Shown here: piece by piece, positions 22,864-64,000 of the stretch | Layout of the letters: each line of letters starts with the position of its first letter | How positions within the stretch are numbered: the stretch's first letter is position 1 | Made by a program: the position numbers and the translations under genes | Assembly (NCBI GenBank): GCA_044892525.1 | Contig: CM097885.1 | Location: 32,614,001 to 32,678,000, forward strand | Reading direction: 5' to 3' | DNA from: Schmidtea polychroa | Taxonomy: Eukaryota | DNA: 64,000 nt | The notes under the pieces: generated by a model | Database searches by the model: none | The model's input: only the letters and a program-made list of their open reading frames with translations | What the model was told of the DNA's origin: nothing

Positions 22864-22864
<1 letters not shown>

Positions 22865-22932
<68 letters not shown>

Positions 22933-27451: not shown

Positions 27452-27453
27452 GA

Positions 27454-27573: not shown

Positions 27574-27604
<31 letters not shown>

Positions 27605-28098
27605 TCAACAACAATAATAATAATATCAACAACACTAATAATAATATCAACAACACTAATAATAATATCAACACTAATAATATCAACAACAATAATAATA
27701 TCAACAATAATAATATCAACAATAATGATATAAACGAAATAACTAAACTAAAAGATCAAGTAAATAAATTAAATGATCAAATAAATAATCTAATTAATAT
27801 GAATAAAAGAAAAAATAATGAAAAAATCAATTCAATACCAAGTAAAAAATCTAAAGTTATTGAAATAATCAACATAAGTGATGATGATGAAATATTCAAC
27901 ATAAGTGATGATGAAATTGATAATAATAATAGTAGTAGTAATATTTATTATAATAATGGTAATAATAATAATATTAATCAAATAGGTTATGGTGTCGTAG
28001 ATGTCACCAGTGATTTAAATAATAATCATTATATTAAAAATGGACGTTTCGTCTTTAGATTTAAAAACGGTCTCTGTACCAGACATTTTAATAAATAA
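27454..28098 (+). CDS. Asn-rich ORF, probable frameshifted N-terminus of PolB
   Basis: Frame is open from 27454 (after TGA 27451) through the track ORF 27799..28098. Contains poly-N, a basic NLS-like patch and a QIGYG motif, and overlaps the PolB ORF by 59 nt. Confidence 0.5.
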
Positions 28099-31000: not shown

Positions 31001-31402
31001 TTATTATATAAAGATTGGGTGTTCTTGAGACCTAAATGTTACAGTTTGATGGGTGATGAGGAAAGTATGAAGGCTAAGGGGATAAGTATGAAAGATACTG
31101 GACTAACACATCAGTCGTATCTAGATTGTTATTTAAATGATAAAATATACACAGTCCCTCAGTTTAGAATAACGTCAAAAAATCACCAACTTTTTAGTAT
31201 TAAAAATAATAAAAGAGCCTTGACATGTAGAGATGATAAGCGAAATTGGGTGGATAAAAATCAAAGTTTGGCATATGGTCATTATAGGGGCGGTGACACC
31301 GTTATATTTATAGATTCAACGGAAGCTATCTCAGCAGATGATACAGATGATTTCCATGATCCAGCAGATGATAATTATTTTGGACATGATTATTTTCGAT
31401 GA
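28040..31402 (+). CDS. Protein-primed family B DNA polymerase (Polinton/adintovirus type) with an endonuclease-VII-like zinc insert
   Basis: Exo I YADFE, Exo II FHNLKGYD, Exo III YLKLDV; Pol A YIDINNLYG, Pol B KLLNNSLYGK, Pol C AGDTDS, then KCY and KAKG. Also CYLC..RDHDHFTG..GAAC..CN and the KGSNW N-terminal motif. Confidence 0.93.
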   Translation: MDVSSLDLKTVSVPDILINKLNLYVNKLKSCKIQFCLKVEFIKDDELQSFVISNSARVWSDTFIDEGIARLNEKIIKINEKGSNWTINKIEYISFVLTKFAEISRLSGRSFIETPKSLRNLSCLVNVVNNDHFCFLYSFLSIIKYDSINRQYRNRPNSYNLSEIKFDPNDMPMKLSNISKFEQQNPGYSINVLTYNERALIDISDEDAVMKHPFIDIIYRSKIVGAIPINLLLIEKNDNYHYLGITDLNRFLNCRNSSITPVRICSQWCPRCLNGFRNDDAFNRHKGLCDKNQLGTTLYTLPKNKYLEFTDWSKTVTPPFVIYADFEAILPKDTRYFQRHLPISAGMLFINNFTGVKIYKSFTGLDCVDQFLTEIEMIGKYIVTPYYYKNYQKKMIITDEQQLMFENSTSCYLCNKPLVSPVRDHDHFTGLYLGAACTTCNLSRQIRHTLPVVFHNLKGYDLHHILKFGLSKYHSWNISCIPLTSEKFLSLFARIDSLTVKFIDSYQFVSESLNNAVKTLSSLPLTESEFQGTIITAKGIFPYDAATSLEVLHNTHQLPPIWKDVTPAEYETAQRIWVETSCTSLFDYMMVYLKLDVFLLADFFQQFRAKSIAHNRLEPLNFLGIPGMSWNSALLTLNSPIELLTDMEMYNFFEGGIRGGLTFVNKHYVKTDPDTALLYIDINNLYGWALSQPLPCSDFEWVTDDNLLNNIIVECTTVDLDLLDYGYTIEVDLEIPTSIHDKLDDLPVAAEKMCVPGSKIEKLLLTHSPKRNYVLHWRLLQIFIKLGVKISKTHRAIKFKQDKIFKNYINTNTALRAASTNKLDKNFYKLLNNSLYGKTVENLKKRINLRLCNSSQRLLTFCSKPTFRKSTKIDDDLISVLLRKDIVCLNRPSYIGQTVLDLSKLRMYQLQYEELQKYRDEFNCEINIVAGDTDSFFLEIKHCSLDILLPAMIRDQLLDTSNYDPNHPLYSRNLDSVIGKFKDENKGLLYKDWVFLRPKCYSLMGDEESMKAKGISMKDTGLTHQSYLDCYLNDKIYTVPQFRITSKNHQLFSIKNNKRALTCRDDKRNWVDKNQSLAYGHYRGGDTVIFIDSTEAISADDTDDFHDPADDNYFGHDYFR

Positions 31403-31758
31403 TGTGTTTAAATTATTTAATAAATGTATTAGTCATATTGTCTTGAATATTTTTTAACAGTAACTTTGTGAACAATTTTTATACATTGTGTGTAATAATA
31501 ATATGTTAAAGTTTTGTTAGTTACCTTTATCACCTTTACCCAGTGTGTTAATAAATTTTAGTGTATATTTAAAGTATAATTTCTTTGTTAATGTTTTGTC
31601 TTGAATATTTTTTAACAGTAACTTTGTGACATTTACCTTTGTGAGCAGTACCCATAATAATAATAATAATAATAATAATGATGATAATAATAATAATAAT
31701 AATATTAATATTAATAATAATAATAATAATAATGATAATAATAATAATAATAATAATG

Positions 31759-31827
<69 letters not shown>

Positions 31828-32427
31828 TATGTTTTATTACATTGTTTAATAATACCCTTGCGAGTTGTTGAGCGCGACCAGTACCCTTGTTAGCAGTATC
31901 CCATAGGGGGACAGAATATTTTGTCGGATAAACTCGGAGTATATAGATTAATAATATATCGATGAGAACACTAACTTGTTGCGTGTGTGGACATTAATAA
32001 TAATATTTTTATACATTGTGTGTGTGACCATAGGGGAACAGAATATTTTGTCTGAGTATTGTGTGTAATAATTTTATTTTATTTAACCATCAAAATAAGT
32101 TTTTAAAATACCGCAACGTAATATATTTAATAATTAAAATTTTAAAATACCGCAACGTAATATATTTAATAATTAAAATTTCAAAATACCGCAACGTAAT
32201 ATATTTTTAAAATACCGCAACGTAATATAAATTTTAAAATACCGCAACGTAATATAAATTTTAAAAAACCGCAACGTAATATAAATTTTTTAAAAAAAAT
32301 TTTTAAAAAAAAAAATTTTAAAAAAAAAATTAAAAAGCCCCCCCGGGGGGGTATGACGTCATATGTCTTTGTGACGTCATCGATGACGTCATATGCCTTT
32401 GTTCCCGGGTCCACACAATACCCTACT
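28274..32427 (+). repeat. Right arm of the giant inverted repeat (pairs with 22242..26414)
   Basis: Junction read directly: 26401-26414 CTACCTTTCTCATT is the reverse complement of 28274-28287. Confidence 0.92.
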
Positions 32428-43693: not shown

Positions 43694-45619
43694 TATGCTA
43701 TCCTTACGTATTCATTTCCCGCCAAAATTGAATACTTTAATTTTTTCAAATTTTTATAAGATTTTGGAATTTTATCGATTTCCATATTTAACTTTTTACA
43801 CGTCCAAATATCTTACGCGCTACTTTAGACGAACCCAAACAAGTAAAAATGATGAGTTCACTACAAATAAGTCCCATAAATCCTTCCTTGTCCTCAAGTA
43901 CTCGTATCTGAGTCAAATCGAAAACACAAGCAATATTAAGAACAAAATGAAATAGTACCTCCATAATAATTATTTTCTAAATTTTAGAATAGATCATTGA
44001 AAATTAATCAGTAAAAAATGTTTATTTATTATTTATAAGAGGCCCAATGCTAAATTTGCTGCGGTCCCATCTTAGTGTCAAAAGACTCGCATACTTAGTA
44101 TTAATATTCTACAGTTTTGATTTTACTATTAGTTATTTATATTAAAGCATTTATTTATTTTTGTATTTTTTATTAATGACTGTTGGGCTAGAACTGATTT
44201 CTAGACCCAAACTACTAATTGTGACTGAAACGTGCAGGTACACAACATGTAAAAAGCAAAAAGTATAGTTAAATATTAAAACCTACACCAAATAAACAAT
44301 ATTAACTAAAGGAGAAAGCAACAAAAACATAAACAAAGAAATTAAATAAAATTATACAGAAGCAAGAAGTGATGCAAAAATCTAACTCAAAAATAACCAA
44401 ACAAACATAGAATTACCAAAAGCAAACTCGAATAACTTAAAAGACGATAAAAATAGTAAAACATTCCAGAAAGACCCAGAACATTCTATAAAATGGCGAT
44501 GACCATCACAAAAGTCATCTAGAACAACAAAAGTTAAGGAAAATAAATGAATTAGTATTAAAAATAAAAAATCTCAAAAAGAAATTCATAAAAACATCAG
44601 TTAAAAATAAAAATTAAATTAAAAGTAAAATAGAATGTTCTGGAACCGTTCCAAATCCATCATGGACGTAAAGTAATGAAAAAATAATTAAAAAATAAAA
44701 ATTTAAAAATAAAAACAAAAATTATAGCACAAAAATTTCCACAAAAAATATAAAAATCATGAAATAGAAAATTCTGGAATAAAAAGAATTCGAGTTTGTT
44801 TTAACGCATCAATACATACACGTGTACAAAATAGGTATATATACTGACACGTTTCAGGCACATTAAGCATTATTTTGTTTATGCCAATATTTTATTAGAA
44901 ATTTTCCGAAAATTATTAGTAAGTAGATTTTTCTTTTGTTATTCGATGTTATCATGATTAATGTAACTATTTTAATGTAGATTAATATCCATAAGATCAA
45001 TTTCTTTTTATTTTTTATCTTTTATTAAAAATTTTTGTTTGAATACGACTGATCAGCGGCGTCTCAGTGCGTCTCTGTTCAGTCCTGCATTTGATATTAA
45101 CAATTTTTGAAACATGCAGACATGCCATATTCTATATATATATTTTTTTTTGTTTGGTCATCGGAGGTCGGCCACTTCATGGTTCTACCATGGAGTTGTG
45201 TCGATAAAACCCCTCCGCTATGGCTCTATATGCTTTATTTATCGGTCGACAGTGATGTTTCGACTCAACACAACAGTAGGGCTTGTCGTAGCGGTCACAG
45301 TGGGGCCGTGTAAGCAAGCATTCTTCCCGAGTACAAGCAAACATATTTAATTTCAACATTAAAAATCGTAGACAATAGGGTACACTAAGGTCATAATCGA
45401 GTAGATCTCAGACCCAAATTGAACACAGCAATTACAATTCAGCTAATGTAGTCGGTTAAGACCTCTCCACTTACACGTTTGTCGAACCTCATTGAGAAAT
45501 AATTTTTCGTATCAGTGTAAATGTCTCTCTCGAAATTGACCGTAATGATGCTCACGAAGGAGTTCGACAAGCGTGAATCGTAAAATGAACTATATACTCT
45601 CCTGTTACACTTAAACATC

Positions 45620-46860
45620 AGGCTATAAATGTATAATGTTCCTAAACTATAGAATATATGTTAGAATTGCTAAATACTTAGAATTCCTAAATGGTAAAAC
45701 ATAACTTACTACCGTACTTAGAATTATATGTGATAAATACGTAATACCTCTAAATTACAAATATGAGTTAATATTGTCTTCAAAAATATAATTTATAAAA
45801 GTTAAATTGTCAAATACCTCTTAATACTATGCCTGAAAATAATGCGGAATATTCATAAATTATAAAATTTTACTTTATACTATCCTCAAAATTATAATCT
45901 ATAAATGTGTAAAACATAATTTATAAATATGAAATTATAATATACATGCTTGAAAAGCAATTTTAAAAATGTGTAATATTCCTAAATTATGAAATTTTAC
46001 CCTATATTATTCTTAAAATTATAACTTATACCTGTGTAAAAATATAATTTATAAATGTCAAATTGTAAAATATAACCTAGTACTATGCTTGGAGGTATAA
46101 TTTATTATGAAATATAACCTATTTCTATACTTAAAAATATAAGTTAAAAAGGTACGTAAATAATTTTTATTGTACCTAAAAATATGATTTATAAATATGT
46201 AATATTACTAAATCATAAGATTGTATTGCTTGTGGTTCGTAAATCTTACCTTGAGATTATCAGTAGCAAACTAAAATGTAAACTCATACTACGTATAAAT
46301 TATAAATTATATCTTAGTATTTTCTGTATAAAAGTATAAAGTCATGCTACTCATAAAGTACAAATTATGTCTTAGAATTATACACAAAAATATAAACTAT
46401 AGGTTTATATTGCCCATCAATTATAGAATGTAACGTATGCATAGAATGCAAATTACAAACTATAAGGTATGATTTTGGTTATAAGTTATAATTTCGGTAT
46501 CCATAAATACAAATTATAAATTCCAAAGAATAGAAACTATAACTAGCTATATATAGCTCATGAGTCCGTAAAGTGTAAATTGCAAGGCTGAAGTGTGGAT
46601 TATGGAATAATTATATAAAGTATAAACCGTAGATTATTTTTATAAAAGTATAATCTAATTATATGTCTAAATTATAAAATTATATATCAAAATTATCTAT
46701 CTAAAAATTATATATCTAAATTACACCTCTAAATTATATATCTAAATTATATAAACTTATAAAATACCATCGTAAATTTAGATTACCAATTATAAACTAT
46801 GATTTCATACTCCATATAAGGTAAAGGACCAAATTCTGAATTCTAAGTTTATATTTCGTA
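45620..46860. repeat. Degenerate AT-rich repeat region inside the LTR
   Basis: Many variants of CTAAATTATA / AAATTATAAA units. Confidence 0.5.
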
Positions 46861-47739
46861 TATAATTGATGAATGACGAATGTATAAAATGTACAGTTGC
46901 GTATGCGAAATTAGCTAGGTTATAATTAACCCCTACGCCAAAATCATGGAGTACAATGACAAACATAAAGGAGAAGCACGCCCGACCTCTAGATCGGAAA
47001 CCGCAGTGAAGCTTGACGGTAATTTAATTAAAACTAATTTAACATCCAGTCGAAAGAGAGAATAATATTTAACATTTATTTTACAACATCAAGGTTCTAG
47101 TGGGCTGAACCAGGATTGCCGAGAGAAGTTCATTGTGGGCTGGAGTCTTGCATACTCCAGCTGTTCCCGCTCGTTGCTGGGAATTGCAAATAGGATTGAC
47201 AGTTGCGGATAATTCCTGAACTTTACGAATCTACTAATTTTAAATTTACAGTCTAACTTACTTCGAAGGATCCAGATGAATTGCAACACAGAAGGGAATG
47301 AATCTAAAAATCTAATATACCAAAATAAACTAAATTTATCAGAAAAAAGTTTTTAAATATTTAAAAGCCTTATAATTACATGTATTTAAAATTTACTATT
47401 CAAAACCATTGTAGTTTACTTTAAATTTGACCTTATTATGATTGTTACGATAAAACACCGTAAAATATGATTAATTGGTAATTTCCGCGTAAGGTAAATT
47501 TTAATGTATAGTGAAAGACTTGAATTTTAATTTAAGCAAAAGTTGAGGGTACCCTTTCAAGTACAATTTAAGTTAATCTGATTAATTGTTTAAATTATGA
47601 ACATTTGGAGTTTGTTTCATATTTTAAGCAAATTTTTTTGTTGTGTGTGGTTTCATATTAGCCCGCGAGCGTTGTAGCAGAGAGAAGCGTTCTCGTTTGC
47701 ATTGTGATAACCTTATTAATCATTGCTACCCAAACAGAT

Positions 47740-48105
47740 ATGTCACACTCAGACGACTACAGCGATGATGACGGCTACAGACAAATGATCACCCGGCTCC
47801 GGTCCCGGTACGTCTGGTTTCACATCCATCGGTGGAGCCAGGGACGGGACTTAGATTGTTCCAACCAAGTAATCCGGACGGGCCCCGAAGTGGATGCCCC
47901 GGCGTGGGTAAAAGTAGAGCCCACCAACAACGTGCTCCGGGAAGCCCGCGATCGAGCGGCCGATGAGGTGGTGGAGGCCCAAAAGCGGCTGAGGAGACTC
48001 GAGCTCCAACTCAAAGCCGAAACACTGGGGGTAACTCTTGAAGAGCTGGAGGAGACCGACACCCCTCCACGAAAACGGGGAAGGCCCCGCAAGAACCTGG
48101 CCTGA
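47740..48105 (+). CDS. LTR-encoded small protein with a coiled coil and C-terminal AT-hook
   Basis: GC-rich coding island; ATG at 47740 in frame with the track ORF; ends PPRKRGRPRKNLA. Confidence 0.6.
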   Translation: MSHSDDYSDDDGYRQMITRLRSRYVWFHIHRWSQGRDLDCSNQVIRTGPEVDAPAWVKVEPTNNVLREARDRAADEVVEAQKRLRRLELQLKAETLGVTLEELEETDTPPRKRGRPRKNLA

Positions 48106-48418
48106 CTCATCGACAGGCGCGGCTTGAATGGAATGGTTTTGACTGATTTCATCCAGTGATATTTTACCTTGTAGTAGCATGACGAATTGTATTTTTCTTT
48201 TGTTCGTTAAATCTTGACAATATAGTCTATCGTGTATCTTCGTAGTGCAATAAATTAATTTTTGTTTCGCTATTACATTTTGAACTTTATAGCTAATGGG
48301 GTGTATTCATGATTGAGGTGCCCCTTTTCTCATCACCCACTTATTAATTTCATGCACGTACTCTAACCAACTTTGCGCACCTGGATGCGAGCGATGGAAT
48401 TTATTATTATTTTCTTCA

Positions 48419-48853
48419 GTGTACCAGTTATTGGAAAACCTACGAAAGGACCGCGAACAGGCCCAGCAACAATCCGAGGGTCTCCGAGGTCGGGTCGAAA
48501 AACTCAAGCTGAAGTATCGAGAACTCCAAAGTACGTGGTTCAGTCCGGCCGACATGAAAAAACAAACTACGCGCATCTCACAACTCCAGACCCAGGCGGA
48601 GCAAGATCAGCTCGAGATCCGAGCGCTGAAGCTACAAGTGCGCTCGCTCGAGAGTAAATTGAACGAAAGGATTGTCCAGGACACCCTTTGCGAGCAGATT
48701 CGTCCTCTTGCCGTAGAGTTGGCCCGGATATACCCACCGGCCCAGACGAACAAGCCGAAACGCAAACGGTTAGGGCGGAACACCCGAGAGAAATTGAAAA
48801 GGGCCTGGCTGGCCGAGCAGGAGAAAGGGAAAGAGCCGGAAGGCAATCCATGA
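48419..48853 (+). CDS. LTR-encoded coiled-coil protein with a basic NLS-like tail (probably a spliced 3' exon)
   Basis: GC-rich, heptad-rich ORF with KPKRKR. It has no leading ATG and begins at a TTTTCTTCAG acceptor. Confidence 0.5.
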   Translation: MYQLLENLRKDREQAQQQSEGLRGRVEKLKLKYRELQSTWFSPADMKKQTTRISQLQTQAEQDQLEIRALKLQVRSLESKLNERIVQDTLCEQIRPLAVELARIYPPAQTNKPKRKRLGRNTREKLKRAWLAEQEKGKEPEGNP

Positions 48854-49235
48854 TCTTGGGAGGCGTTCGAGAGTGCGTGAACAATCCGTGTAATATGGTG
48901 GTGGCTTAATAAATGAGTCTTGTTATTTAATGAGTATGAGAGTGAACTTTGCTGTTGTCAAAAACAGGATGGTTGGCGGGAAGGCGCTTGGAAAAACAAT
49001 CTCGATGAGGGACCGAAATAAATCGGACACGTGCCTTCTATCGGCGTCCGTGAACCCATAGAGTGCTCGACAATTACAGTGCTTGGCGCGCTCACTTTTT
49101 GCGAGTACTCAACCCCTTGGTACAGTACCAACGTTGATTGCTCAACGGGTACCAAGAGGAAAACAATGTTGTATTCTGGGTTACGCTGGTAACAGCACTT
49201 AAACATTCAACCACCAGTAACCCACCATACAAATT

Positions 49236-49258
49236 TGGGGGCTCAGTCGGGATTTGAA
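49236..49258 (+). other. Primer-binding site, tRNA-Pro
   Basis: TGGGGGCTCAGTCGGGATTTGAA versus the canonical tRNA-Pro complement TGGGGGCTCGTCCGGGATTTGAA; lies directly after ...CA. Confidence 0.85.
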
Positions 49259-49951: not shown

Positions 49952-50434
49952 ATGGAATCAACCGGCTACATTACAAAGAGACTCGAAAAATTCGTAGATT
50001 TAACACACAATTCGTTACAACGGCTGAATCGCAAAGCGGACCAGTTAATAAAAATCCAAGATGAGATGAGCTTGAATCCAAGACCGCAAGCTGAGGAAAT
50101 ATGTGTAATGATGAAAATAGCGACACCTAATGCAGAATTGACCACTAAAAGAGTTTATCAACTTCAAAATTTACGATTAGATAATGCCAAATTTAACATC
50201 AAATGGCAGGAGATAATGATAAAAATGGAAACGATCGAGGAAGAAATTAAAGAAGCAATCGAACATCAAGTTAAAGATTTTAGAAAATGCTTCATATGCA
50301 GAACCAATGAAATACGAGTAATGACGATTCCATGTGGTCATTTATGCTACTGCGAGAATTGCGCAGAGAAAATTAAACGATGCAACGTATGCGATACGAA
50401 TGTTAGAGAGAAAATTGTAATATACCTCCCATAA
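49952..50434 (+). CDS. Coiled-coil plus IAP-type C-terminal RING finger protein (putative E3 ligase)
   Basis: CFICRTNEIRVMTIPCGHLCYCENCAEKIKRCNVC...IYLP matches the IAP/MDM2-like terminal RING layout. No BIR domain. Confidence 0.8.
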   Translation: MESTGYITKRLEKFVDLTHNSLQRLNRKADQLIKIQDEMSLNPRPQAEEICVMMKIATPNAELTTKRVYQLQNLRLDNAKFNIKWQEIMIKMETIEEEIKEAIEHQVKDFRKCFICRTNEIRVMTIPCGHLCYCENCAEKIKRCNVCDTNVREKIVIYLP

Positions 50435-52180: not shown

Positions 52181-53112
52181 ATGAAATTGATTAAACTGAA
52201 ATAGATTAAGTGCGATAAATATATAATGAGTAGAGGAGAATTATGATAAAGCGCCGGCGCAAGCGAAAATTAAACCAGTTTTTGGATGGGGAAAAGCGAA
52301 CGAATAGATAGTAGTTGAATTATTGAATTTTATTTATTAATGATATGTTTATTTTGATATTTATGTGATTAATATTATATTTCTAGGATAATTATAAAAG
52401 GGATAGATAATTGATACGAATATATAGATAATTGATACGAGTTATAGATAATTTAAAATCAACTTAAAATCAAAATGGGGCGAATAGCGAGAAGTGTAGA
52501 AAAGCTAGAAAATTTGAAGCGAAGGGACAGTAAAATAAAGGGAAAAAGGAAAGTAAATGAAGGGTTTAATAAAGAGAATTTATGATATGTACTAGAGGTG
52601 TTAATTATTTTAGAATAAAGCAAACAATTCAGAAAGAAATCAAAGAAATCAAGAAAGCAATAGAAATCAAGAGATATAGAGAAATCAATTAGAAGCGAAG
52701 AATCAAGGAAATTAATAAAACCAAATCCAAGAAGAGTTAGAGAATCGTAAAGATTAAAGCGAGAAAAATACTTAGAAAACATCGAGCTCGATTGACAAAG
52801 TAGAAAATTTATCAAAGGATATTAAAAGGAGGAAAAATTGATAGCATAGCTAACCGAACGAGGCGAAAAAGTAAAGGAAACCTCAGTTTATTGGAAAAGG
52901 AAGAGATACAAAAGGCCAAGACCAACAGAAAACTACACAGGAAGCCAGCATCAGTAGAAACAGTATTTGAATCAGACAGTTTAACAAACGAATTTGAGAA
53001 CAGCGACGATCTTAAACGAACCGAACTAGATCCGATAAGTGACATTGAATCATCAGACGAGGAAGGAAATAGTTCAGAGTCAACCAATATAACAATTTTG
53101 TGTCAAGAAATA

Positions 53113-56100
53113 ATGACAGACGGAATTCCAAATGTAACAGGGCTAACGGACCCACCGGAAACAAGTAATGTGCACGTCAACATTGGAGAATTCAGAGAGA
53201 AATTTCGAGGAGAGCCATTCGATGGAAATATAAACCAGCTGGAAACGTTTATAAAGGAATTCGAAGTATACATTACGATATGTCACTGGCCAGATATAGT
53301 CGTACGAGAACGAATACCCCTATATCTAAAGGGAAGCGCCCAAGATGTATACTTGGAGGCGAAATGTGATGCAACAAAGTTGAGAACGTGGAAAGAGATC
53401 AAGGAGTTTTTAATAAAAACATTCGGTACCGAAAAAGAGGGAAATCGAAAAATGTTAGACTTTCTGCATCGAAAGCAGAAATATAACGAATCCAACGCAC
53501 TGTACGCATGCGAATTGAGACGACTAGCACGAGAAGCCTTCGATTCAAATCAACCAGTTCCGGAAGACAAAATAATAGCCGTATTCGTAGATGGCATGAA
53601 ACGGGAGGATATACGAGCAACTTTGGGATGCCGAGCACCAGAGACGCTGGAAGAAGCACTAAAAATAGCTAACAAATGTGAAACTTACCTAACACCAATA
53701 CAAGTAGCAGCAATGACAGCAGCCCCAGCAGCTCCAGCAACAACAGCAACAACCACAAACAACCAAGTCAATAATGCAAATCCAGTAATGAATCAATTCA
53801 TCCCAGGATCGCAACAGTTGTTCAAAACTCCACAAACAAGAAACCAAAACAATGGAGGTAATATTCAAAATTTTACTAATAATTTCAGGAACAACGACAT
53901 CAACAATCGAACGTGCAACATATGCCAACGACCAGGGCATTGGAGCAATGAATGTTATAAAGCAAGGATGTGTCAAAAGTGTGGGAGAAGAGGCCACACG
54001 GAAAATGTCTGCAGAGGACCCATGATGTCTATGAGCAGAGGAGGAACCAGAACCTGCTACAATTGTAATCAGCCTGGACACATGGCAAGAGAATGCACGA
54101 TGAGAACCAAACCAAATCAACCAGGATCAAACAATCCAGTTCAGAACACACAAATCAACCTCATGCAGGAAATCGAACAATTAAAAGATATGATCCTGCG
54201 AATACCGACTAATAACCAACAACAACGAATCAACATGATGCAGAGCACCGAGGAAATCCGGAACCAACCAAGTAAGCAACAACAAGATCAGCAACGAGTC
54301 GAATGGCAAAGATTACAAAACGAGGAAGCCAGAGAAATTCAAGAAAGATGGAAACAACGGGAAGCGAATCCCGGAAGAATAAATATGATGAGATTAACAA
54401 ATAAAGAGGAATCGCACACTGCGGAGCAGTGTGTTAACAACGACGGGAGTGAACCGATAATAAACAAGGAGATAAAAACGACAAAAGAAAATGAGATTGA
54501 TCCACGAACAGAATTGAGCAGTGAAGAGAAAATACAATTGATTAAAGAATTTACCAAAGAGGAGAAAGAAAGGAGACAAAAGAGAAATGAGAGTAAAGAC
54601 GAACCAAAAAGCAATGAGATAATTACAAAAAATCGAATTCAGAGGGTACTACTACAAAAAATCGAAGACAGAATCAAAAACGAAAACCCTACATTAACTG
54701 AGGAACAAATAAAAGAAAAAGTGAAAGAGCATTGGTTTAGGAAAAATGAGTGGTTTGAAAAGAAGGAACCACATACCAAAGCTAAAATAAACATGCTGAG
54801 ACAAATGCGGAGCGATCAGACGGATCAGGAAGATGAGAAAAGTGAGGTGAGTAGCCTGGGAGGCGAATTATTTCAGTCAAGTGAGGAAAATAACGAACCG
54901 AAAACACCTCCAAACAGTGAAACACCTCAAAGTAGTGAGGAGAGTGAAAATGATGACATGAAATCAATGATAGAAAAAGATGAAGAAGAGATATTCGAGG
55001 AAATTCTCGACACAGTAACAGAAATAGAGCGAAATGAGAGCTACATCAACGAGTTAACATACAGAAAATGCTTAAAACTTATAACTCAAGTATACCAGTG
55101 TGAAGGAGGTATAATAACGGCAGCATGGAAAGATTTAGCAACAAAATATAAAGAGAAACTAAAGGAAGCAGGCCCAGATCAATATCAAGTAAGTATTCAA
55201 CACCCCGAGATTCAGATACAGACTATTGAATTAAAAGGAACAAATACCGATGAACTGTACAACTGGGTACAGGAAAAAATGGGAACGAGCCATAAAAATA
55301 AACAATTATATGTCGATGGTTACAAAGTTAAAATGGGCATACATTTGGTAGATGCGATGATATGGCCAAACGAAACTAACATCTTAACCTTAGAGAAAAC
55401 CAGAGATGACGACTCGGTAGCAGAGATGTTCAAGAAAATCCAACAAGTGTTTAACAATGAAGTGGAACCAGAATTGGAAAAGATCGAACGAAAAATAATG
55501 AAAGAAAATCAAATAATCTTAGTCAAACAAGCTATCGATCAGACAAGGAAATACATTAATAGACTGAGAGAAAGATGGCCACAACTAATGAAACAATTCG
55601 TTAAAGACGTACGAGACACGGAAATTATGAGATTTGAAGATGAACGAGCGACAGAATTGATATCCAAATACGGAGAATACGAGAGAACCAAATGCGAACA
55701 AGAAACGATAAAATTAAAAGTGAAGTTGCCAAATGAAGAGAAACAAATAATAGAAGTTAACCCCGATTGCCAAGTTGACGAGTTGGTACAAATCATAGAT
55801 CAAGAAATCATCCAAAAAGCTCGAGAAAATAGTGAGGATGGAATGATCGAAGATGTGATAATAATGTACAACATGCACATGCTAGAAAGAGGAGACCGAA
55901 CTGTAATTTACGAACTAGGAATCTGGGAAGATGGAGCCGTCATCAATATAATCGCGATGGATGAACCATCTGGTGGGCACAAAAACGCCACGAAAACCGA
56001 GCAACAAATTAAAAGATTCCAATGGGGAATGAGAGCAAAGATGGATCGAATAATAGATATTTATAACCATTGGCTAAAGGATGATAAACTAAAACTAGCA

Positions 56101-59100
56101 GCCTTCAATGACGAAGATTGCAAACTGATACCATGGAAAAAAGTGTGGATCGAAAGTGAAGCTCGATGGGATTGGGAGCAGCAAAAGTTGGAACCAAATT
56201 GGATAGATAATATACCCGAAGAGATCGCAGCAGTATGGGTAAGAGAGAAACCGATCGATACTTACCAGGATATATTACCACAAGAATTCCAAAATGAATT
56301 ACCATCAGGAGAAGATGAGGAGATACGAGAACCGGTAAAGTTAGCACCATTCACGTGGAAAATTGAGAATTGGATGGAAAAGATAAAATCAGCAAAGGAA
56401 GAGAAAATCACACGATTAGTAAGTCCACCGTTCTACTCAGGATTAGGTGAGTACAAGATGAAATTGCGAATATACCCGAACGGAGACGGGATAGGTAAAG
56501 GAAGTTATGTGTCGGCATTCTTCGTCATCTGCAAAGGAAATTATGACGACAAGGTACCATGGCCGTTTAGCAGAAAAGTGACGATAGCAATCGAACCATT
56601 GAAAGATAGCCTTAACGTACATAAAGAAATAATGAAACCAGATCCAAGGAGCGCCTGCTATCAACGACCAACAACATCAGAAAATATCGCTTCTGGGACA
56701 CCTAAATTAATACGTCTAAGTTACATTGAGAATGAGCAGTCAAAATTTGTGAAAAACAATGCTATCCAGATCAGAGTAGAAGTTGAAACAGAACAAGAAA
56801 TGAACCAACGACTGAACATACCAGAAAATCAACCGAGAATCTGTATGATGAGGAGAAGAGTGCCTGATTCAGGACATCTACCAATAGACGCAGATGCAGA
56901 TGAGGAGGAAGCAGCAACATTGTTGGAAGCACAAAAATGTAAGGAGTTGATGGAGATATTACAAAACGGGGCGAAAAATCGTCGACGAGCGGTGGTAGAA
57001 CTAGCAAAATGGATAGCCGAATCATGCAAAAGGATTCAAAACCTACGAAAGATCGTTAAAGCGATTGAAGAATATCGACGGGTATACGTATGGTACCCTG
57101 AACAATTTGGTGAAATCATCCGGAAATGGAAACAACGAGAGTGGGCCGAAAACTCACCTGAGAAATATCAATTAAAAATATTCATGCCAGATTTTGAACC
57201 AATGGAAAAGGAATTCTATACGACAGCTAAAGTCAGAGAAGTTAAAAAGAGAATACCTTATGAACTCCCATTCCACTTACAACACGAGGGACGATCATTA
57301 GACGACGATATTGAGATCGGTGTGACACCACTCCAAGGAGAAATTGTGAACAGATTAACGGTGAGTAAAATTGCAGGTAGAGAGCTAAGGAGAGGAGAGA
57401 TAAAGCAAAAATCATCCACCCAACAACCAGGAAGTTTGGACACACCAGAAGTTCCAAATGCGGTTAGTGAAGTGACGATCGAAACAACGGGAGAAGACGA
57501 AATACTGGATGAATTACAAGAGATAGTAGAAGCAGGCGAGATTATGAGAGCATCGCAATCAGGAGATCTATTTATCGACGAAGGTGAACCGACAACTGAT
57601 GATTTAGATGGATTTGTATGCGCGCAGAGACAACCAGTGGAAACGACGGAAGCCGAGACGGATTTAGATAACGTGGAAAGAGGTGCCAATAAAGATGTAA
57701 CCACAACCGATGAATGGAGCAACTGGAGAGTAGATCCAGGAGCGACCACGTCAAAAGATACAACTTACAATCCGCCAAAACGGAAAGAAACCGGAACAGC
57801 TATGGATCGACGAACAAGAGGAAGACCAAAAACAGATAAAGCAGAGATCGAACCAAAATCCAAAGTTCAGGCGCAAATGGAACAGGTAAAAACTAAAATG
57901 GATAAACTAAGTGCATTAGTAAAACAAGTTAAAGTGAAGACAAGCGTCCGAGAACAAGGGACACGATGGATAAATGACCTATTAGCCAACATGTTAGCAT
58001 TAGCAAATCCAGATGTGAAAAGAGTAATGAGGAAGGATAATATTCCGACCGAAGCCAAACAATTATGGGCAGTATTGAAACCGATAATAATGAAAATCAT
58101 GGATAATAAAATTCGATTAACGTTAAAAGATCCCGTGGAACTCAGATTAATTGTGGAACATCTATTAAGCAGATCAGAGGACCAAAATCGATTTTTAGTG
58201 GGATTAGCATATTTAGTATATAACGTTATCGGTCAATATAAAAAACGAATGCCAAAATATAACGCAACGGGTTACGAATTCACAGTAACAGAAATAATTA
58301 AACGATCAATAGAACCATATATACTTGAACAAGGGGGATGGAGAAGCTTCATCGAATCAACTGGGAAGAAAGATCAAACGGAAATGATGCAAGCAAAGTT
58401 ACGCGATTTGCTAACTGAATTCGAAGGAACAATCAATATAAACGACCCAAGAGCAAGTCGAAAGGGAATGAATGCCATAATAACCACGATATTGATATGG
58501 ATGATGTGTATCAAAGGAACGGAGTCATTTGCAGTATACGACTGCGACAACATAAAAATCCATGAGAAATATTCATTAAAGGATACGGAAGACTGTAAAG
58601 CGGCAAACCCAAGAAAATTACAAACAGTCATGGCATCAGTCTCGTACAACGTATATCAAGAAGCAGATTTCATCAAAACTATGGTCCAAGAGTGTACGAT
58701 AACCAGAAAGATATTCGCACATCACTGCGGTTCATCCTCACACTCAACAATCATAGAACCAGGATTGGAATCGACAGTAATATTACTATCAAGAGAGGAA
58801 TGCGAGGAAGGGTTCCGATCAGGGAGAATCCACTTAAGGCAAGGGATTGAAATCGCTGCAGAACCAGGAAAAATAAAAACGACTCGCGTATATACGGCGG
58901 GCAGAATCACTAAAGGAGACGGAACATGTGAGACAGGAACATACACCTTGAACGGACAACTGGTTAGTGGAGTGGTCGTAATAGAAAGTTACGAAGCTAA
59001 ATTGGAAAAGTATCAAGGCTACTTTGACCCTGACACGCAAGCAATGAAGAAATACCCAAGCTGTCTCGCATCAGATCGATCATGTTCAACCGGAATGTCA

Positions 59101-62100
59101 ACTCTGGTATACCACGCAGATCAGAAAGTATGTCGACTAATGTTACTCAAGACAGCAATATTCGAAGAAATCCAAGGGAAAGTGTACAGTGAACCAAAAG
59201 GAGAAGCAGAGAGACGAGCGATGGAAGAATTGAGAGCAAGGAAAGGATTCAGGGAAGACGTAATAACATCGAAATTGGAATCGGAAGTAACACCCACAGC
59301 GATAATCTCCAAAGACGATGGAATAGGAATGAGGTTCATAAAGAACAAAATGGTGAGTAAATGCGATGAGATGGTGATCAGCACCAATTATAAAGGGATC
59401 TACTTGTCGCGGAGAACCCTAGCAAATGCAGTCGGAAGACTAAGCGAAAAGGATGTCAAATTATATTTATACGCTAATAATAAGATGGATTTCTTATATC
59501 ACAGAGGATTAACATCTACGGAAAAAGTCTATCATGATCTGTTAAGAAACGATTGCCTGCTCAACAAAGAAATATTGAGAACAAAATTAGCAATGGCGAT
59601 TACAAATCCAGATAACGCAATTCCACTACTACCATTACAGGAAGGATATTTCGGACGAATCGTGGGCGAAGTGATGTACACCTACCAATGCAAAAAGATA
59701 ATGGCAAGATTGCCGGAAAACCCTACAATACCAAGGGATAAGTGTGCAAACGAACTCGAAATTATTCACGAAGGTAAACCCAGGTTTGTGCAAGCAGTCA
59801 CTAGGATAATGAACCCGGTAGGGTTTCAGCCAAATCTGTTTAATTGCAGTAATGCATATGGGCCAATGTATGAAAAAGAAGACGGACAATGGGTTCAATT
59901 TCCAAGTAAAACAATCGTAGTGACACCCAAGAAATTTGGATTGACGGAACTAACAACAGAATTAGAGTTCAAGCCGATAGACGTATCACAGAGTGGATTA
60001 TATACACCAAAAGATCTTGAATCAGCAAGGGCCCACATGTTATTCCCAGCACACAGACAAGCGATCCTATCAAATATAGTGACTATTTCTGGAGGAAATA
60101 ATTATGGGGAGAGCCCAAATTACGAGCTATTATTATCACCAAGTCACTATCAACAAGCAACAGCAAACATGATGAAGGCTATGTGGGGTCGATTTTTGGT
60201 ATTTGGCCAAATGATGGCAGGAATACTCGGAATTATTCTGATAATACAAATAGTCAGAGTAATACTAACCCAGATGCTAGCATGTTTTGACATCTATAAG
60301 CGCGAGAGAAAAGTAAATTGGAAACTTGCAATTGGATTCTTACCGTTCTTAGCGAAAACAATGGTGTTGCATGGACACTCAAAGGATATTCATCGAATAA
60401 AAAGATTGTTGAAAATACTAACGCAAATGAAAGGGACAGACGAAGAAGTCGGACGTAAGTTCAAAGTGATAATGAGATTAGAAGCAGAAAGAACTCAAGA
60501 GAAAGCAAAAAGAACCGGGAAGTGGAAAAAGTGGATGAACCTCAGGCGAGACGATGATAGTGACAACGACAATGATGATTTCGACGACGATGATAATAAC
60601 CAAGGAGGAGCAATGTTGATAAATAAAAATACAGCCACTTGGGAAAACGAAAAAATGAAACCATGGGGATCACCGTATTCACAGACCCCATATTTACAAG
60701 CACCAACTAATGGACCAATGCGACGACCAGGAACAATGAGAGAACGGATAAGAATGGGAACCGGGAGATTGCCCGTACCAAATATTTACCCAACGGCGTA
60801 TGAACCAAATTGGGCAGCAATGGACCCAACAATGATCAAGCCAATTAAAAATGTGGGGCAAGAGGTGGAAACACGAACGATTGCGGTATTGCAGACACCA
60901 GCAGGACCATCGTTAACTATCACGGTCGAAGTAAACGGAATAGAGATGGATGCAATGATTGATACCGGAGCAAATATCTCAGCAATAAATATGAATATGC
61001 TACCAGGAAGACTATGGCCATGCATTGAGGAAACAACCATGGATGTAATAACATGCAGCAAACAATCCATAGCGGTAGTAGGAAGAGTATGGTCAACGAT
61101 CGAATACAAAGGGGTTAAAGTTACAACGTACCTCGCAGTCATTAGACAGCTAAGCGTATCATGTATAATTGGAACAGATGTAATGCCGGAATTATTGAAA
61201 GAAATTGTGATTGATTTGAGTTCCATGAAATTAAAAGATAAAACTGGACAGATATGCACAATGAGAACAGAAGTGAGATGCTCCGAAAAAATGATAATAC
61301 CAGCACGTACCCAGACAATATGTTATGTCAAGGTCGATAACGAAGCCAAAGGAGATATGATATTCGAACCAAGTCAAAAATTTGAGAAGAGAAGAGAGCT
61401 ACCATTGGCAAGAGAGATCGTCAGTATAAATGAGGATAATGAGATACCCATCAACATCACCAATTTTGACGAAGAAGATAAAGTAATCTACGAAAACGAG
61501 AGACTTGGGAAACTCACACCAATGATGAACATCGAACTGCCGGAGTTAAAAAGCGAAGGAGCAGACGAAAAAGAATTGTGGACCATCGATAGCGAACTCC
61601 TAAATGAAGACGAAAAGGAACAACTCAGACAACTACTGATTGAGTTTAAAGATATTTTTGCGGCTTCAGATTTGGATTTGGGTACCAGCGATGTAACGCA
61701 ACACATTATACCATTAACGGATGAGACACCCATAACTTTGAGACCATATCGATTAGCCGAAGCACAGAAAACGGTAGCAGAGGAGGAAGTACATAAGATG
61801 TTAGATGCCGGAGTGATAGAACCTAGCTGTTCACCATGGCAATTTCCAGTGGTAATGGTCAAAAAGAAAGATGGCACACAGAGATTTTGTATCGATTATC
61901 GGAGGTTGAATGCAGTAACAAAAAGGGATACATACCCACTGCCAGATATTAACGAAATGTTACAGATGTTACATGGAGCAGCATACTTTACATCTTTAGA
62001 TCTAAAGAGCGGATACTGGCAAATTAAAGTTAAAGAGGAAGATAGAGAAAAGACAGCCTTTACCATCGGAAAAGATTTATATCAGTTTAAAAAGATGCCA

Positions 62101-64000
62101 TTCGGATTAACAAATGCACCTGCTTCGTTTCAAAGATGTATGAACTTTGTGACACACGGAATTAAACAATGTATGGTGTATATTGATGATCTGTTAATTT
62201 ATTCAGGTACTTTCGAGCAACACTTAATCGATATCAGAAACGTCTTCATAAGACTGAAACAATGGAAGCTGAAATTGAAACCGTCAAAATGCGATTGGGC
62301 AAAGGAGAGAGTCACGTTTTTAGGACATATTGTGTCGGCAAAAGGAAAGGAACCAGATCCGAGAAACGTTGAAAAGATAAAAAATTGCCCGATACCAAAG
62401 ACTGTGACTCAGGTACAAGAATTTCTGGGATTATGCGGATACTACCGCAAGTTCATCAAAAATTATGCAACTATAGCAAAACCAATTCAGGAACTAACGA
62501 AAAAAGACACCCCATTTTTGTGGGAAAGAGAACAGCAAATAGCATTCGAATCGTTAAGAGATAAACTAATAGCCTCACCTATTCTAATACACCCAGATTT
62601 TAAAAAGCCTTTTCTACTAGCAACCGATGCCAGTGGATATGCATCAGGAGCTGTGCTAGGACAATGGGATGAGGAGAAACGAGAAAGAGTCATCGGATAT
62701 TATAGCAAGACGTTCAAAAAGCACGAAAAGAATTACTCAGTCACAGAAAGAGAAGCCTTAGCAATAATTCAGGCGATAAAACATTTCAAATATTTATTGT
62801 GGGGACACGAGATAATTATTACTACAGACCATCAACCTCTAGTTTGGTTGGGCCAACACAAAGAAGCATCTAGTCGATTAATGAGATGGGCAATGCAGTT
62901 ACAAGAATATTCCCCATACATCAAATTCAAGTCAGGAAAAGCAAACGCAAATGCAGACTGCATGTCGAGATTTGTATTTGAGGAACTCATGGATCATGAC
63001 GTCAGACGAATATGCCTGATAATCGCGGAAGATATCGATTTTACCAATCTAAAGAACGAACAAAAGGAAGACAATGAATTAAAACTAATAATTGAGTTCC
63101 TGGAAAAAAACGATATGAAAATATTCAACAACGATGATCGACTAAAAGAACACATGGAGAAAAATCGTCACAGATATACGATCGAGAAAGGATGGCTATT
63201 GGTAATGGATGGCGACAAACGATTGATGTGTCTACCAGAAAGTAGACGGAAAGAAATTATGATTCAATACCACGATGGTAAATTGGGCGGACATATGTCA
63301 GCCAAGAAAACAGAAGCAAGGCTCAAACAGAAATATTACTGGCCAAATATGAGCGATGACGTGAAAGAATGGATAAAGAACTGCCTGATATGCGCAACCA
63401 GAAAAACAACGGGCAGTAAACTAAAGCCACCATTGAAACCAATGCCGATACCGCCAGAACCGATGACAATGATTGCAATGGATGTAGTTGGACCACTACC
63501 AGAGACTAACAGTGGAAATGTGTATATATTGGTAATAACTGATTATCTGACTAAGTTCCCTGAAGCATTTGCGATGCCAGACCAAAAAGCACGAACGGTT
63601 GCAAGGATATTAGTGGAAGAGATCTGCTGCAGATATGGAACACCAAAACAAATCTTAACTGACCAAGGAACTAATTTCATGAGCGAGATAATAAATGAAG
63701 TGACAAATTATTTTAGAATCGCCAAATTGAGAACCTCACCATACCACCCGCAAACGAATGGTCAGACAGAAAGATTTAACGGCATACTAATAGACATGAT
63801 GTCCAATTACGTGAGTAAACATCAAAAGGACTGGGATGAATATATTAAGTTGTGTCTAATGGCTTATCGAATGTCAATACACTCAGCAACGAAAATGAGT
63901 CCGTTTAAACTCATGTATGGAAGGGAATGCAACATGCCGATGGATCTCGAATACCAACCGCCAATCTCACAATATATGGAAATAGATGATTATGTGACAA
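53113..64000 (+). CDS. Giant Gag-accessory-Env-Pol polyprotein (>3600 aa, 3'-partial)
   Basis: Hand translation of frame 1 found no stop after TAG 52801; first ATG at 53113. Capsid ~53200-53690; CCHC knuckles at 53914, 53971, 54055; MATH 56350-56787; BH2-like YILEQGGWRSF at 58318; glycoprotein 58468-~60380; protease AMIDTGA (D at 60961); RT YIDD 62179; RNase H TDASG, TEREALA, TDHQPL; integrase HHCC from 63271, AMDVVGP, TDQG, HPQTNGQTER. Confidence 0.93.
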   Translation, partial: MTDGIPNVTGLTDPPETSNVHVNIGEFREKFRGEPFDGNINQLETFIKEFEVYITICHWPDIVVRERIPLYLKGSAQDVYLEAKCDATKLRTWKEIKEFLIKTFGTEKEGNRKMLDFLHRKQKYNESNALYACELRRLAREAFDSNQPVPEDKIIAVFVDGMKREDIRATLGCRAPETLEEALKIANKCETYLTPIQVAAMTAAPAAPATTATTTNNQVNNANPVMNQFIPGSQQLFKTPQTRNQNNGGNIQNFTNNFRNNDINNRTCNICQRPGHWSNECYKARMCQKCGRRGHTENVCRGPMMSMSRGGTRTCYNCNQPGHMARECTMRTKPNQPGSNNPVQNTQINLMQEIEQLKDMILRIPTNNQQQRINMMQSTEEIRNQPSKQQQDQQRVEWQRLQNEEAREIQERWKQREANPGRINMMRLTNKEESHTAEQCVNNDGSEPIINKEIKTTKENEIDPRTELSSEEKIQLIKEFTKEEKERRQKRNESKDEPKSNEIITKNRIQRVLLQKIEDRIKNENPTLTEEQIKEKVKEHWFRKNEWFEKKEPHTKAKINMLRQMRSDQTDQEDEKSEVSSLGGELFQSSEENNEPKTPPNSETPQSSEESENDDMKSMIEKDEEEIFEEILDTVTEIERNESYINELTYRKCLKLITQVYQCEGGIITAAWKDLATKYKEKLKEAGPDQYQVSIQHPEIQIQTIELKGTNTDELYNWVQEKMGTSHKNKQLYVDGYKVKMGIHLVDAMIWPNETNILTLEKTRDDDSVAEMFKKIQQVFNNEVEPELEKIERKIMKENQIILVKQAIDQTRKYINRLRERWPQLMKQFVKDVRDTEIMRFEDERATELISKYGEYERTKCEQETIKLKVKLPNEEKQIIEVNPDCQVDELVQIIDQEIIQKARENSEDGMIEDVIIMYNMHMLERGDRTVIYELGIWEDGAVINIIAMDEPSGGHKNATKTEQQIKRFQWGMRAKMDRIIDIYNHWLKDDKLKLAAFNDEDCKLIPWKKVWIESEARWDWEQQKLEPNWIDNIPEEIAAVWVREKPIDTYQDILPQEFQNELPSGEDEEIREPVKLAPFTWKIENWMEKIKSAKEEKITRLVSPPFYSGLGEYKMKLRIYPNGDGIGKGSYVSAFFVICKGNYDDKVPWPFSRKVTIAIEPLKDSLNVHKEIMKPDPRSACYQRPTTSENIASGTPKLIRLSYIENEQSKFVKNNAIQIRVEVETEQEMNQRLNIPENQPRICMMRRRVPDSGHLPIDADADEEEAATLLEAQKCKELMEILQNGAKNRRRAVVELAKWIAESCKRIQNLRKIVKAIEEYRRVYVWYPEQFGEIIRKWKQREWAENSPEKYQLKIFMPDFEPMEKEFYTTAKVREVKKRIPYELPFHLQHEGRSLDDDIEIGVTPLQGEIVNRLTVSKIAGRELRRGEIKQKSSTQQPGSLDTPEVPNAVSEVTIETTGEDEILDELQEIVEAGEIMRASQSGDLFIDEGEPTTDDLDGFVCAQRQPVETTEAETDLDNVERGANKDVTTTDEWSNWRVDPGATTSKDTTYNPPKRKETGTAMDRRTRGRPKTDKAEIEPKSKVQAQMEQVKTKMDKLSALVKQVKVKTSVREQGTRWINDLLANMLALANPDVKRVMRKDNIPTEAKQLWAVLKPIIMKIMDNKIRLTLKDPVELRLIVEHLLSRSEDQNRFLVGLAYLVYNVIGQYKKRMPKYNATGYEFTVTEIIKRSIEPYILEQGGWRSFIESTGKKDQTEMMQAKLRDLLTEFEGTININDPRASRKGMNAIITTILIWMMCIKGTESFAVYDCDNIKIHEKYSLKDTEDCKAANPRKLQTVMASVSYNVYQEADFIKTMVQECTITRKIFAHHCGSSSHSTIIEPGLESTVILLSREECEEGFRSGRIHLRQGIEIAAEPGKIKTTRVYTAGRITKGDGTCETGTYTLNGQLVSGVVVIESYEAKLEKYQGYFDPDTQAMKKYPSCLASDRSCSTGMSTLVYHADQKVCRLMLLKTAIFEEIQGKVYSEPKGEAERRAMEELRARKGFREDVITSKLESEVTPTAIISKDDGIGMRFIKNKMVSKCDEMVISTNYKGIYLSRRTLANAVGRLSEKDVKLYLYANNKMDFLYHRGLTSTEKVYHDLLRNDCLLNKEILRTKLAMAITNPDNAIPLLPLQEGYFGRIVGEVMYTYQCKKIMARLPENPTIPRDKCANELEIIHEGKPRFVQAVTRIMNPVGFQPNLFNCSNAYGPMYEKEDGQWVQFPSKTIVVTPKKFGLTELTTELEFKPIDVSQSGLYTPKDLESARAHMLFPAHRQAILSNIVTISGGNNYGESPNYELLLSPSHYQQATANMMKAMWGRFLVFGQMMAGILGIILIIQIVRVILTQMLACFDIYKRERKVNWKLAIGFLPFLAKTMVLHGHSKDIHRIKRLLKILTQMKGTDEEVGRKFKVIMRLEAERTQEKAKRTGKWKKWMNLRRDDDSDNDNDDFDDDDNNQGGAMLINKNTATWENEKMKPWGSPYSQTPYLQAPTNGPMRRPGTMRERIRMGTGRLPVPNIYPTAYEPNWAAMDPTMIKPIKNVGQEVETRTIAVLQTPAGPSLTITVEVNGIEMDAMIDTGANISAINMNMLPGRLWPCIEETTMDVITCSKQSIAVVGRVWSTIEYKGVKVTTYLAVIRQLSVSCIIGTDVMPELLKEIVIDLSSMKLKDKTGQICTMRTEVRCSEKMIIPARTQTICYVKVDNEAKGDMIFEPSQKFEKRRELPLAREIVSINEDNEIPINITNFDEEDKVIYENERLGKLTPMMNIELPELKSEGADEKELWTIDSELLNEDEKEQLRQLLIEFKDIFAASDLDLGTSDVTQHIIPLTDETPITLRPYRLAEAQKTVAEEEVHKMLDAGVIEPSCSPWQFPVVMVKKKDGTQRFCIDYRRLNAVTKRDTYPLPDINEMLQMLHGAAYFTSLDLKSGYWQIKVKEEDREKTAFTIGKDLYQFKKMPFGLTNAPASFQRCMNFVTHGIKQCMVYIDDLLIYSGTFEQHLIDIRNVFIRLKQWKLKLKPSKCDWAKERVTFLGHIVSAKGKEPDPRNVEKIKNCPIPKTVTQVQEFLGLCGYYRKFIKNYATIAKPIQELTKKDTPFLWEREQQIAFESLRDKLIASPILIHPDFKKPFLLATDASGYASGAVLGQWDEEKRERVIGYYSKTFKKHEKNYSVTEREALAIIQAIKHFKYLLWGHEIIITTDHQPLVWLGQHKEASSRLMRWAMQLQEYSPYIKFKSGKANANADCMSRFVFEELMDHDVRRICLIIAEDIDFTNLKNEQKEDNELKLIIEFLEKNDMKIFNNDDRLKEHMEKNRHRYTIEKGWLLVMDGDKRLMCLPESRRKEIMIQYHDGKLGGHMSAKKTEARLKQKYYWPNMSDDVKEWIKNCLICATRKTTGSKLKPPLKPMPIPPEPMTMIAMDVVGPLPETNSGNVYILVITDYLTKFPEAFAMPDQKARTVARILVEEICCRYGTPKQILTDQGTNFMSEIINEVTNYFRIAKLRTSPYHPQTNGQTERFNGILIDMMSNYVSKHQKDWDEYIKLCLMAYRMSIHSATKMSPFKLMYGRECNMPMDLEYQPPISQYMEIDDYVT

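Follow-up and report, generated by a model that had tools for sequence, protein, structure and literature searches.

A giant Burro-type Ty3/gypsy element of Schmidtea polychroa with a class III fusogen-type envelope domain inside a single gag-env-pol polyprotein

The DNA analysed here (the window) is a stretch of 64,000 nt from Schmidtea polychroa (GCA_044892525.1, contig CM097885.1, positions 32,614,001-32,678,000, forward strand); flanking DNA past its edge was examined to follow an open reading frame (ORF) to its end and to reach a 3' long terminal repeat (LTR). The window carries an intact, recently inserted copy of a giant Ty3/gypsy element of Burro type. Its identity as a Burro-type element with a class III envelope (Env) region is practically certain, the likeness to Burro being drawn from the published description. 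Env lies in one frame with Gag and Pol and is divided as follows:

58468-58527, forward strand: predicted internal signal peptide MNAIITTILIWMMCIKGTES (aa 1889-1908), with a basic n-region upstream and T/S at -3/-1
58528..60183, forward strand: Env ectodomain, class III (gB/chuvirus-type), with 14 Cys and one N-glycosylation sequon
60184..60267, forward strand: membrane-proximal region and predicted transmembrane (TM) helix (TM segment 60184-60255; core aa 2470-2488)
60268..60888, forward strand: presumed cytosolic tail of ~205 aa, joining Env to Pol

Every motif quoted in the original prediction, which had described a chuvirus-like glycoprotein embedded in a retroelement, was recovered at its place in frame +1 of ORF 52804..>63999, including FAVYDC (58528-58545), HHCGSSSHS (58720-58746), YANNKMDFLY (59470-59499), GEV (59665), CANEL (59743) and SGLYTPKDL (59992-60018). 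The chuvirus-type class III fusogen fold that it had expected was likewise obtained. Pfam PF24664 (Monjiviricetes_fusion) matched 58468-60381 with E 3e-71 (240.6 bits, compared with a cut-off of 27), and 990 proteins of the representative library gave matches at E<=0.001, so that the likeness greatly exceeds what chance would give. An AlphaFold model built from 86 aligned sequences had a mean predicted local distance difference test score (pLDDT) of 87.7. In Foldseek, the top rows of BFVD were the G protein of Tacheng tick virus 4 (7e-41) and models from chu-related viruses, and those of the PDB were herpes gB (5e-14). The best VIA-align match was gB of herpes simplex virus 1 (Z 9.7, root-mean-square deviation (rmsd) 12.1, 433 aligned), followed by other gB proteins and then by thogotovirus GP and rhabdovirus G at Z 5-6. 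A PDB sequence search with env alone returned no significant match (one at E 1.6). The 86-sequence alignment contained 12 invariant columns, and the family-invariant cysteines and glycines were retained. As modelled, env is a class III fusogen fold; both class III fusion-loop motifs can be read in its sequence, with loop 1 being polar.

Compared with stand-alone members of the family, env showed 19-23% identity and a shared Cys/Gly pattern. In a quickly built, midpoint-rooted tree, with stand-alone rows lacking named references and the careful search unfinished, a long branch (SH-aLRT 100) separated 15 embedded envs from 45 of 98 usable stand-alone rows. The 'chuvirus-like' env thus placed appears to be a distant sister of the sampled stand-alone chuvirus-type proteins and is not nested among them; a recent capture from a chuvirus is not indicated by this tree. 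Among the 15 closest relatives scanned, 11 had env followed in frame by the protease (PR), and by reverse transcriptase (RT) and integrase (IN) where the record was long enough; in the remaining four, the record ended or no PR match was present. The env-PR layout was also seen in relatives P0152, P0154, P0155 and P0156.

At least two further env-bearing families were noticed in the same genome (L045-L048). They are ~35% identical to the window env and 65% to each other, and their loop-1 motifs resemble Smed_errantivirus_1 and _2. Relative P0005, a Burro-like env-pol polyprotein, is filed as a hypothetical protein of a Flavobacteriaceae metagenome-assembled genome and is probably eukaryotic contamination.

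The ORF comprises 4,791 codons from stop to stop, 1,059 of them past the window edge, where ankyrin repeats (Ank_2 E 6e-8) and a second signal-ectodomain-TM module follow. Zero stops separate Gag from PR, RT, RNase H (RH) and IN. The in-window parts of the polyprotein outside Env are:

52804..64000 and beyond, forward strand: single polyprotein ORF, frame +1, first ATG at 53113
53113..54099, forward strand: Gag, with a capsid-like part and, at aa 371-432, three CCHC zinc knuckles, from Pfam zf-CCHC (aa 368-432), reading of the sequence and BLAST to the Gag regions of relatives
55699..55983, forward strand: weak ubiquitin-like domain (OTU1_UBXL E 0.005, UCH_UBL1 0.06, UBX 0.16, all under cut-off)
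56350..56784, forward strand: MATH (TRAF-C) domain, aa 1183-1327 (MATH_2 E 1e-28)
57949..58353, forward strand: Bcl-2-like domain (BH1/BH2 region, GGW at 58333), 65 residues ahead of the predicted signal cleavage site
60919..61194, forward strand: aspartic protease, DTG at 60961 (Pfam, aa 2706-2797)
61858..62910, forward strand: reverse transcriptase (YIDD at 62179) and RNase H (RVT_1, RT_RNaseH)
63235..64000, forward strand: integrase, cut by the window edge (Integrase_H2C2, rve)

The placement of env in frame between Gag and protease was correct as regards the single ORF and the gag-env-pol order. Env does not adjoin Gag itself but directly follows the Bcl-2-like domain, with ~1,450 residues (spacer, ubiquitin-like, MATH and Bcl-2-like) between the Gag knuckles and env. 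The Bcl-2-like region of the window copy alone gave no Pfam match. A five-sequence profile of the region matched Bcl-xL/Bcl-2 weakly (E ~8e-4), in agreement with the published Burro annotation, and relative P0008 matched Pfam Bcl-2 at E 1e-3; ESM Atlas rows for the region were weak transposase matches and were discarded. No Pfam match was found for aa 2793-2919, where a dUTPase-like domain was considered.

The boundaries and flanking parts of the element were located within the window and in the flanking loci L011 and L012 beyond it:

44177..44180: target-site duplication TGAC, 4 bp; second copy after the 3' LTR, L012:6691-6694 (beyond window)
44181..49227, forward strand: 5' LTR, 5,047 bp, TG...CA
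49236..49258, forward strand: primer-binding site, 8 nt past the LTR
49952..50434, forward strand: accessory ORF, 160 aa, C3HC4 RING of inhibitor-of-apoptosis (IAP) type (zf-C3HC4_3 E 3e-12)
L011:4832-6229, 6435-7613, 7694-9295 and 9413-end, and L012:259-1284: accessory ORFs between the polyprotein ORF (ORF1) and the 3' LTR
L012:1644-6690: 3' LTR (beyond window)

The element is ~35.5 kb long with its 5,047-bp LTRs included, and the two LTRs differ at three of 5,047 sites. The primer-binding site is complementary at 23/23 bases to a genomic tRNA-Pro(TGG) at its 3' end, with CCA included. The downstream accessory ORFs encode a near-complete TRAF-like protein (zf-TRAF and MATH), an IAP (BIR E 2e-15 and RING) and two coiled-coil proteins; one further ORF has a signal-like start and a TM-like segment. 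LTRs, target-site duplication and tRNA primer site were all present, and the domain profiles were gypsy-type in the order PR-RT-RH-IN. Judged by these profiles, the carrier is of Ty3/gypsy type, and the BEL/Pao elements mentioned in the original prediction do not provide its class. The profiles of BEL/Pao elements are DUF1759, DUF1758, Peptidase_A17 and DUF5641. No BEL/Pao-type family was found among 17 Pfam families at E<=0.5, and none in the C-terminal part; with no such profile, and with env preceding PR instead of following integrase, a BEL/Pao identity was ruled out.

Two short ORFs (47662-48105 and 48317-48853) were observed in the GC-rich part of the LTR and are present in both LTRs; one of them ends in an AT-hook-like RGRP motif. 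Genes resembling tRNA-Pro form a tandem array with a period of ~475 bases at L044 and neighbours (G000:C1), and the tRNA-Pro-like pattern had 1,574 matches genome-wide with <=1 mismatch.

Copies in the genome were identified by protein search, and the best 79 of 2,692 candidates were scored. No stop was present in env in 79/79 of these, and 59/79 lay in an open frame of >=4,770 codons; an open frame in most otherwise intact copies had been anticipated. For a nine-copy set ranked on 8 kb, to which the window copy was added, 17 synonymous and 10 non-synonymous variant codons were counted in the ectodomain (pN/pS ~0.16), and 8/9 of the ranked copies had no stop in the covered part. In three copies of a second family from the same genome, one of them with a stop, dN/dS was 0.13-0.16. 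Between families, dS was saturated, with dN of 0.23-0.67. Env is under purifying selection, and the comparison across copies that the original prediction had named as a check was in its favour. Env could also be a non-functional passenger in young copies, and the identity of 98-100% between copies would indeed leave little time for decay. The selection data make this explanation very unlikely and have already largely refuted it; in addition, env has kept the same position and topology in relatives of only 25-41% identity.

The copies appeared mosaic over window positions 55500-64000 (loci L002-L010): each copy departs from the window copy in its own set of 0.5-1 kb blocks, with <=33 differences per 500 nt, and is near-identical in the rest, as expected from recombination between subfamilies. 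Diversity was low over 57000-60500 but also in RT, in copies picked for their similarity; no selective sweep of env is claimed. Contigs of four runs guessed to be RNA cover the env region with no listed joint removing env, and they provide no evidence on expression or splicing. Contigs of two runs (X11, X14) skip 860 bases (55510-56371) and have 12 unrelated letters in their place; loose ends flanking the gap on either side are AT-rich, which suggests a fragmentary derivative elsewhere.

The internal signal and the TM anchor claimed for Env could both be recognized. The sole 19-residue stretch with a Kyte-Doolittle mean >=1.5 among the 3,732 in-window residues is the env TM, and the h-region of the signal was visible at a hydropathy width of 11. 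The signal was then compared over 18 embedded envs (the window copy, 15 library proteins and two genomic loci). All 18 had a hydrophobic h-region and 16 a net basic n-region. Small residues at -3/-1 were found in 17/18 at a single register, set three residues ahead of the conserved [YF]DC; 11 of the 12 other registers gave 0-8 of 18, and the one at +3 gave 14. This conserved signal-peptidase register supports a predicted internal signal cleavage and is an addition to published accounts. Alternatively, most Env-Pol might come from an RNA of its own, spliced or internally initiated, with Met1889 as the start. The signal would then be of the ordinary N-terminal sort, and the frame left open towards Gag would be secondary. 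The window signal does start exactly with Met, Met occurs within eight residues before the h-region in 7/18 embedded envs, and a separate Env-Pol RNA would solve the problem of the Gag:Pol ratio. However, Met just ahead of the signal core is absent in 11/18, which favours an internal signal. Moreover, no stop lies between the upstream domains and env in any long relative, and in 5/5 elements with a Bcl-2-like domain its GGW motif lies 49-79 residues ahead of the cleavage site. A separate Env-Pol message is considered quite unlikely, and cleavage at an internal signal is the preferred reading.

Candidate sites for the element's own protease were recognized as recurring motifs at or near domain borders:

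54151..56850, forward strand: recurring motif [RKQ]I[NCF][LM][MLI], five copies (aa 450, 475, 525, 661, 1345)

Two more protease-like motifs mark domain borders: the sixth (aa 3402) that of RH and IN, and the seventh, beyond the window, that of IN and the ankyrin repeats. The in-window protein contains six, compared with a mean of 0.13 (max 2 in 500) after shuffling, an enrichment that is overstated because the motif was derived from the same sequence. No such motif occurs from aa 1346 up to the signal, and the first looser one past the TM (RTIAVL) is at aa 2692, just ahead of PR. With this spacing, the Bcl-2-like domain would end up in a tail-anchored product, and Env would keep a long tail.

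A second membrane module follows the ankyrin repeats at the C-terminus:

L011:2689-4179, aa ~4296-4791 (beyond window): predicted second signal peptide, Cys-rich ectodomain, five sequons, TM and tail

The same plan from signal to TM was found at the C-terminus in 5/6 relatives reaching so far (P0003, P0005, P0152, P0155, P0156), with unrelated sequences; in the sixth (P0016) a signal was present and the TM unclear. BLAST of the second modules between families gave no significant match except for P0155/P0156. Among 100 scored copies (558 candidates), 98 had no stop inside the module and 45 lay in an open frame of >=4,770 codons without a stop inside the match. No homologs were found among 6,407 and 561 candidates in limited length ranges, no Pfam match was obtained for the module and none at a useful E for the modules of four relatives, and the ESM Atlas gave no usable match. 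The single-sequence model had a mean pLDDT of 50 and no Foldseek match at E<=0.001. For one domain, modelling weakly suggested an Ig-like sandwich (pLDDT 70-80; 94 residues aligned at rmsd 3.3, best Z 8.5), and an L.P.T.Y motif in relatives may be fibronectin-like. No account of a second membrane module was found in the texts searched; figures, supplements and further papers may describe it. This predicted second membrane protein, placed where env usually lies, is an addition to the published accounts consulted.

Combining these features, the following course is proposed, in which Env would be a working class III fusion protein produced within the polyprotein. First, Gag, the spacer and the ubiquitin-like, MATH and Bcl-2-like domains would be made in the cytosol. 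Second, the internal signal would thread the Env ectodomain into the endoplasmic reticulum (ER), and signal peptidase would cut before FAVYDC, with the spent signal leaving the upstream precursor tail-anchored in the manner of cellular Bcl-2 proteins. Third, the Env TM would stop transfer, so that PR-RT-RH-IN-ankyrin would be cytosolic on the Env tail. Fourth, the second signal and TM would thread the second glycoprotein at the C-terminus. Gag and Pol would be kept on the same membrane face without a frameshift, and the element's protease would free both at the recurring motifs. Finally, budding particles would carry Env, and membrane fusion would bring them into other cells. The four crossings would give a consistent topology with all enzymes in the cytosol.

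The whole chain, including internal processing, budding and infectious particles, is judged to be probable, with infectivity as an inference. Processing by signal peptidase together with the element's own protease, as originally suggested, appears to be the best-supported model, although the strict form of the protease motif was found in 0/13 relatives. Several further points weigh against the chain. The signal and TM calls derive from hydropathy and the -3/-1 rule; the Env ectodomain has only one sequon; putative fusion loop 1, assigned by analogy, has a less polar counterpart in most stand-alone relatives; a clear polypurine tract ahead of the 3' LTR was not found; and the copy counts come from best-scoring matches and are biased to intact copies. 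No experimental report of Burro particles or of infectivity of the element was found in the literature searched. A single polyprotein would also supply Gag, Env and Pol at 1:1:1, unlike in retroviruses.

With the same polyprotein and processing, budding might instead be directed into the ER or vesicles, the particles being handed on by direct cell contact, or Env might serve a membrane role in the host cell, with no free infectious virions. Fold, selection and intact copies show a needed protein, not an extracellular phase, and the polar putative fusion loop and the single sequon would fit such a life cycle, as would the high copy number, which is explicable by ordinary retrotransposition in stem cells. 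However, the full class III ectodomain is retained with its invariant cysteines and glycines (12 invariant columns, 86 sequences), and the simplest use of a class III fold is entry by fusion. This alternative is regarded as unlikely, and budding of infectious Env-bearing particles is preferred.

A more far-reaching proposal, made tentatively and rather doubtful as a whole, is that Burro-type elements are infectious invertebrate retroviruses with a flavivirus-like polyprotein of four membrane crossings. It would consist of a tail-anchored Gag/Bcl-2 part, a class III fusogen carrying Pol on its tail, and, where env usually lies, a fast-evolving Ig- or fibronectin-like surface partner for attachment or as an immune decoy; the retroelement would use a two-glycoprotein entry system and would now be spreading between cells. 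If the main mechanism set out above holds, a retroelement could package Pol through its envelope protein, with no need for a Gag-Pol frameshift, and the giant repeats that are most abundant in planarian genomes might travel in viral form from one stem cell to another. The very young, many-copy family is a system in which processing and particle formation are testable.

Two other features of the window were noted. A near-perfect palindrome (22376-32315, arms of 3,551 nt, 100% complementary) holds a 1,127-codon ORF (28019-31402), with Endonuclease_7 as its only Pfam match, and an inverted partial copy. The motifs of this ORF resemble those of a Polinton-type, protein-primed DNA polymerase of family B; the palindrome may be a fold-back element, or it may have arisen in assembly. 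On the reverse strand, 12800-14400 contains the remains of a broken LTR retroelement with RNase H-like and integrase pieces (DUF7047 E 7e-12).

The in-frame gag-env-pol layout, which the original prediction had set against the usual place of env downstream of pol, is already known: it has been in print for planarian Burro elements since 2019 (Arkhipova and Yushenova 2019, PMC6431247) and for several phyla since 2026 (PMC13524379). As described in the parts of PMC6431247 consulted, Burro has an ORF of 4,873 aa, exceeds 30 kb with LTRs, and carries env between Bcl-2 and PR with mononegavirus-type glycoprotein matches; Burro polyproteins span about 4,800-5,100 aa and reach past IN. Burro / GYPSM1 resembles the window element in size (>30 kb), LTRs, one ORF of ~4,800 aa, three CCHC knuckles, MATH and Bcl-2-like domains, env before PR, PR-RT-RH-IN, ankyrin, BIR and coiled-coil. 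Burro also has a ubiquitin-like domain, which in the window element has its weak, sub-cut-off counterpart ahead of MATH, unlike in that Burro. The Burro env was likened there also to gypsy Env and F proteins, whereas the window env models as class III. Neither internal signals nor membrane topology come up in the text consulted, and a second membrane protein is not mentioned there either. Elsewhere, as far as those sources were seen, Burro1 was expressed upon piwi knock-down (PMC8532177), and its IAP supports regeneration (Lee 2026, relayed by PMC13465017).

GAG-ENV-POL elements with a gB-type env were described in Nematoda, Bryozoa and Platyhelminthes (eLife 2026, PMC13524379), where six Schmidtea mediterranea errantiviruses are listed; the words 'polyprotein', 'in-frame', 'fused' and 'Burro' were not found in its main text as consulted. 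Smed_errantivirus_6, the nearest named sequence, shares the GAG-ENV-POL order and the gB-type fold with the window element, and its env stretch aligns gapless to window env aa 55-314, with 172/260 identical residues (~66%, hand count). By itself this likeness makes a dugesiid planarian the most likely host. Since about one third of the env residues differ, the window element is probably a sister family of Smed_errantivirus_6, for which one copy is listed there, compared with at least 59 open-frame copies of the window family.

Chuvirus/Jingchuvirales-type glycoproteins share the Pfam family, the fold and the Cys/Gly pattern with the window env. Mosquito BEL/Pao elements captured chuvirus-type glycoproteins (Dezordi 2020, as described in PMC13524379); in contrast, the window carrier is of Ty3/gypsy type with env before pol. 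According to the same source as far as consulted, Drosophila errantiviruses (gypsy, ZAM), a model for infectious retrotransposons, are env-bearing Ty3/gypsy elements like the window element, but their env is F-type (class I) and a separate spliced ORF after pol. To these known systems, the present analysis adds a very young many-copy family, a conserved signal register, purifying selection and a second membrane module.

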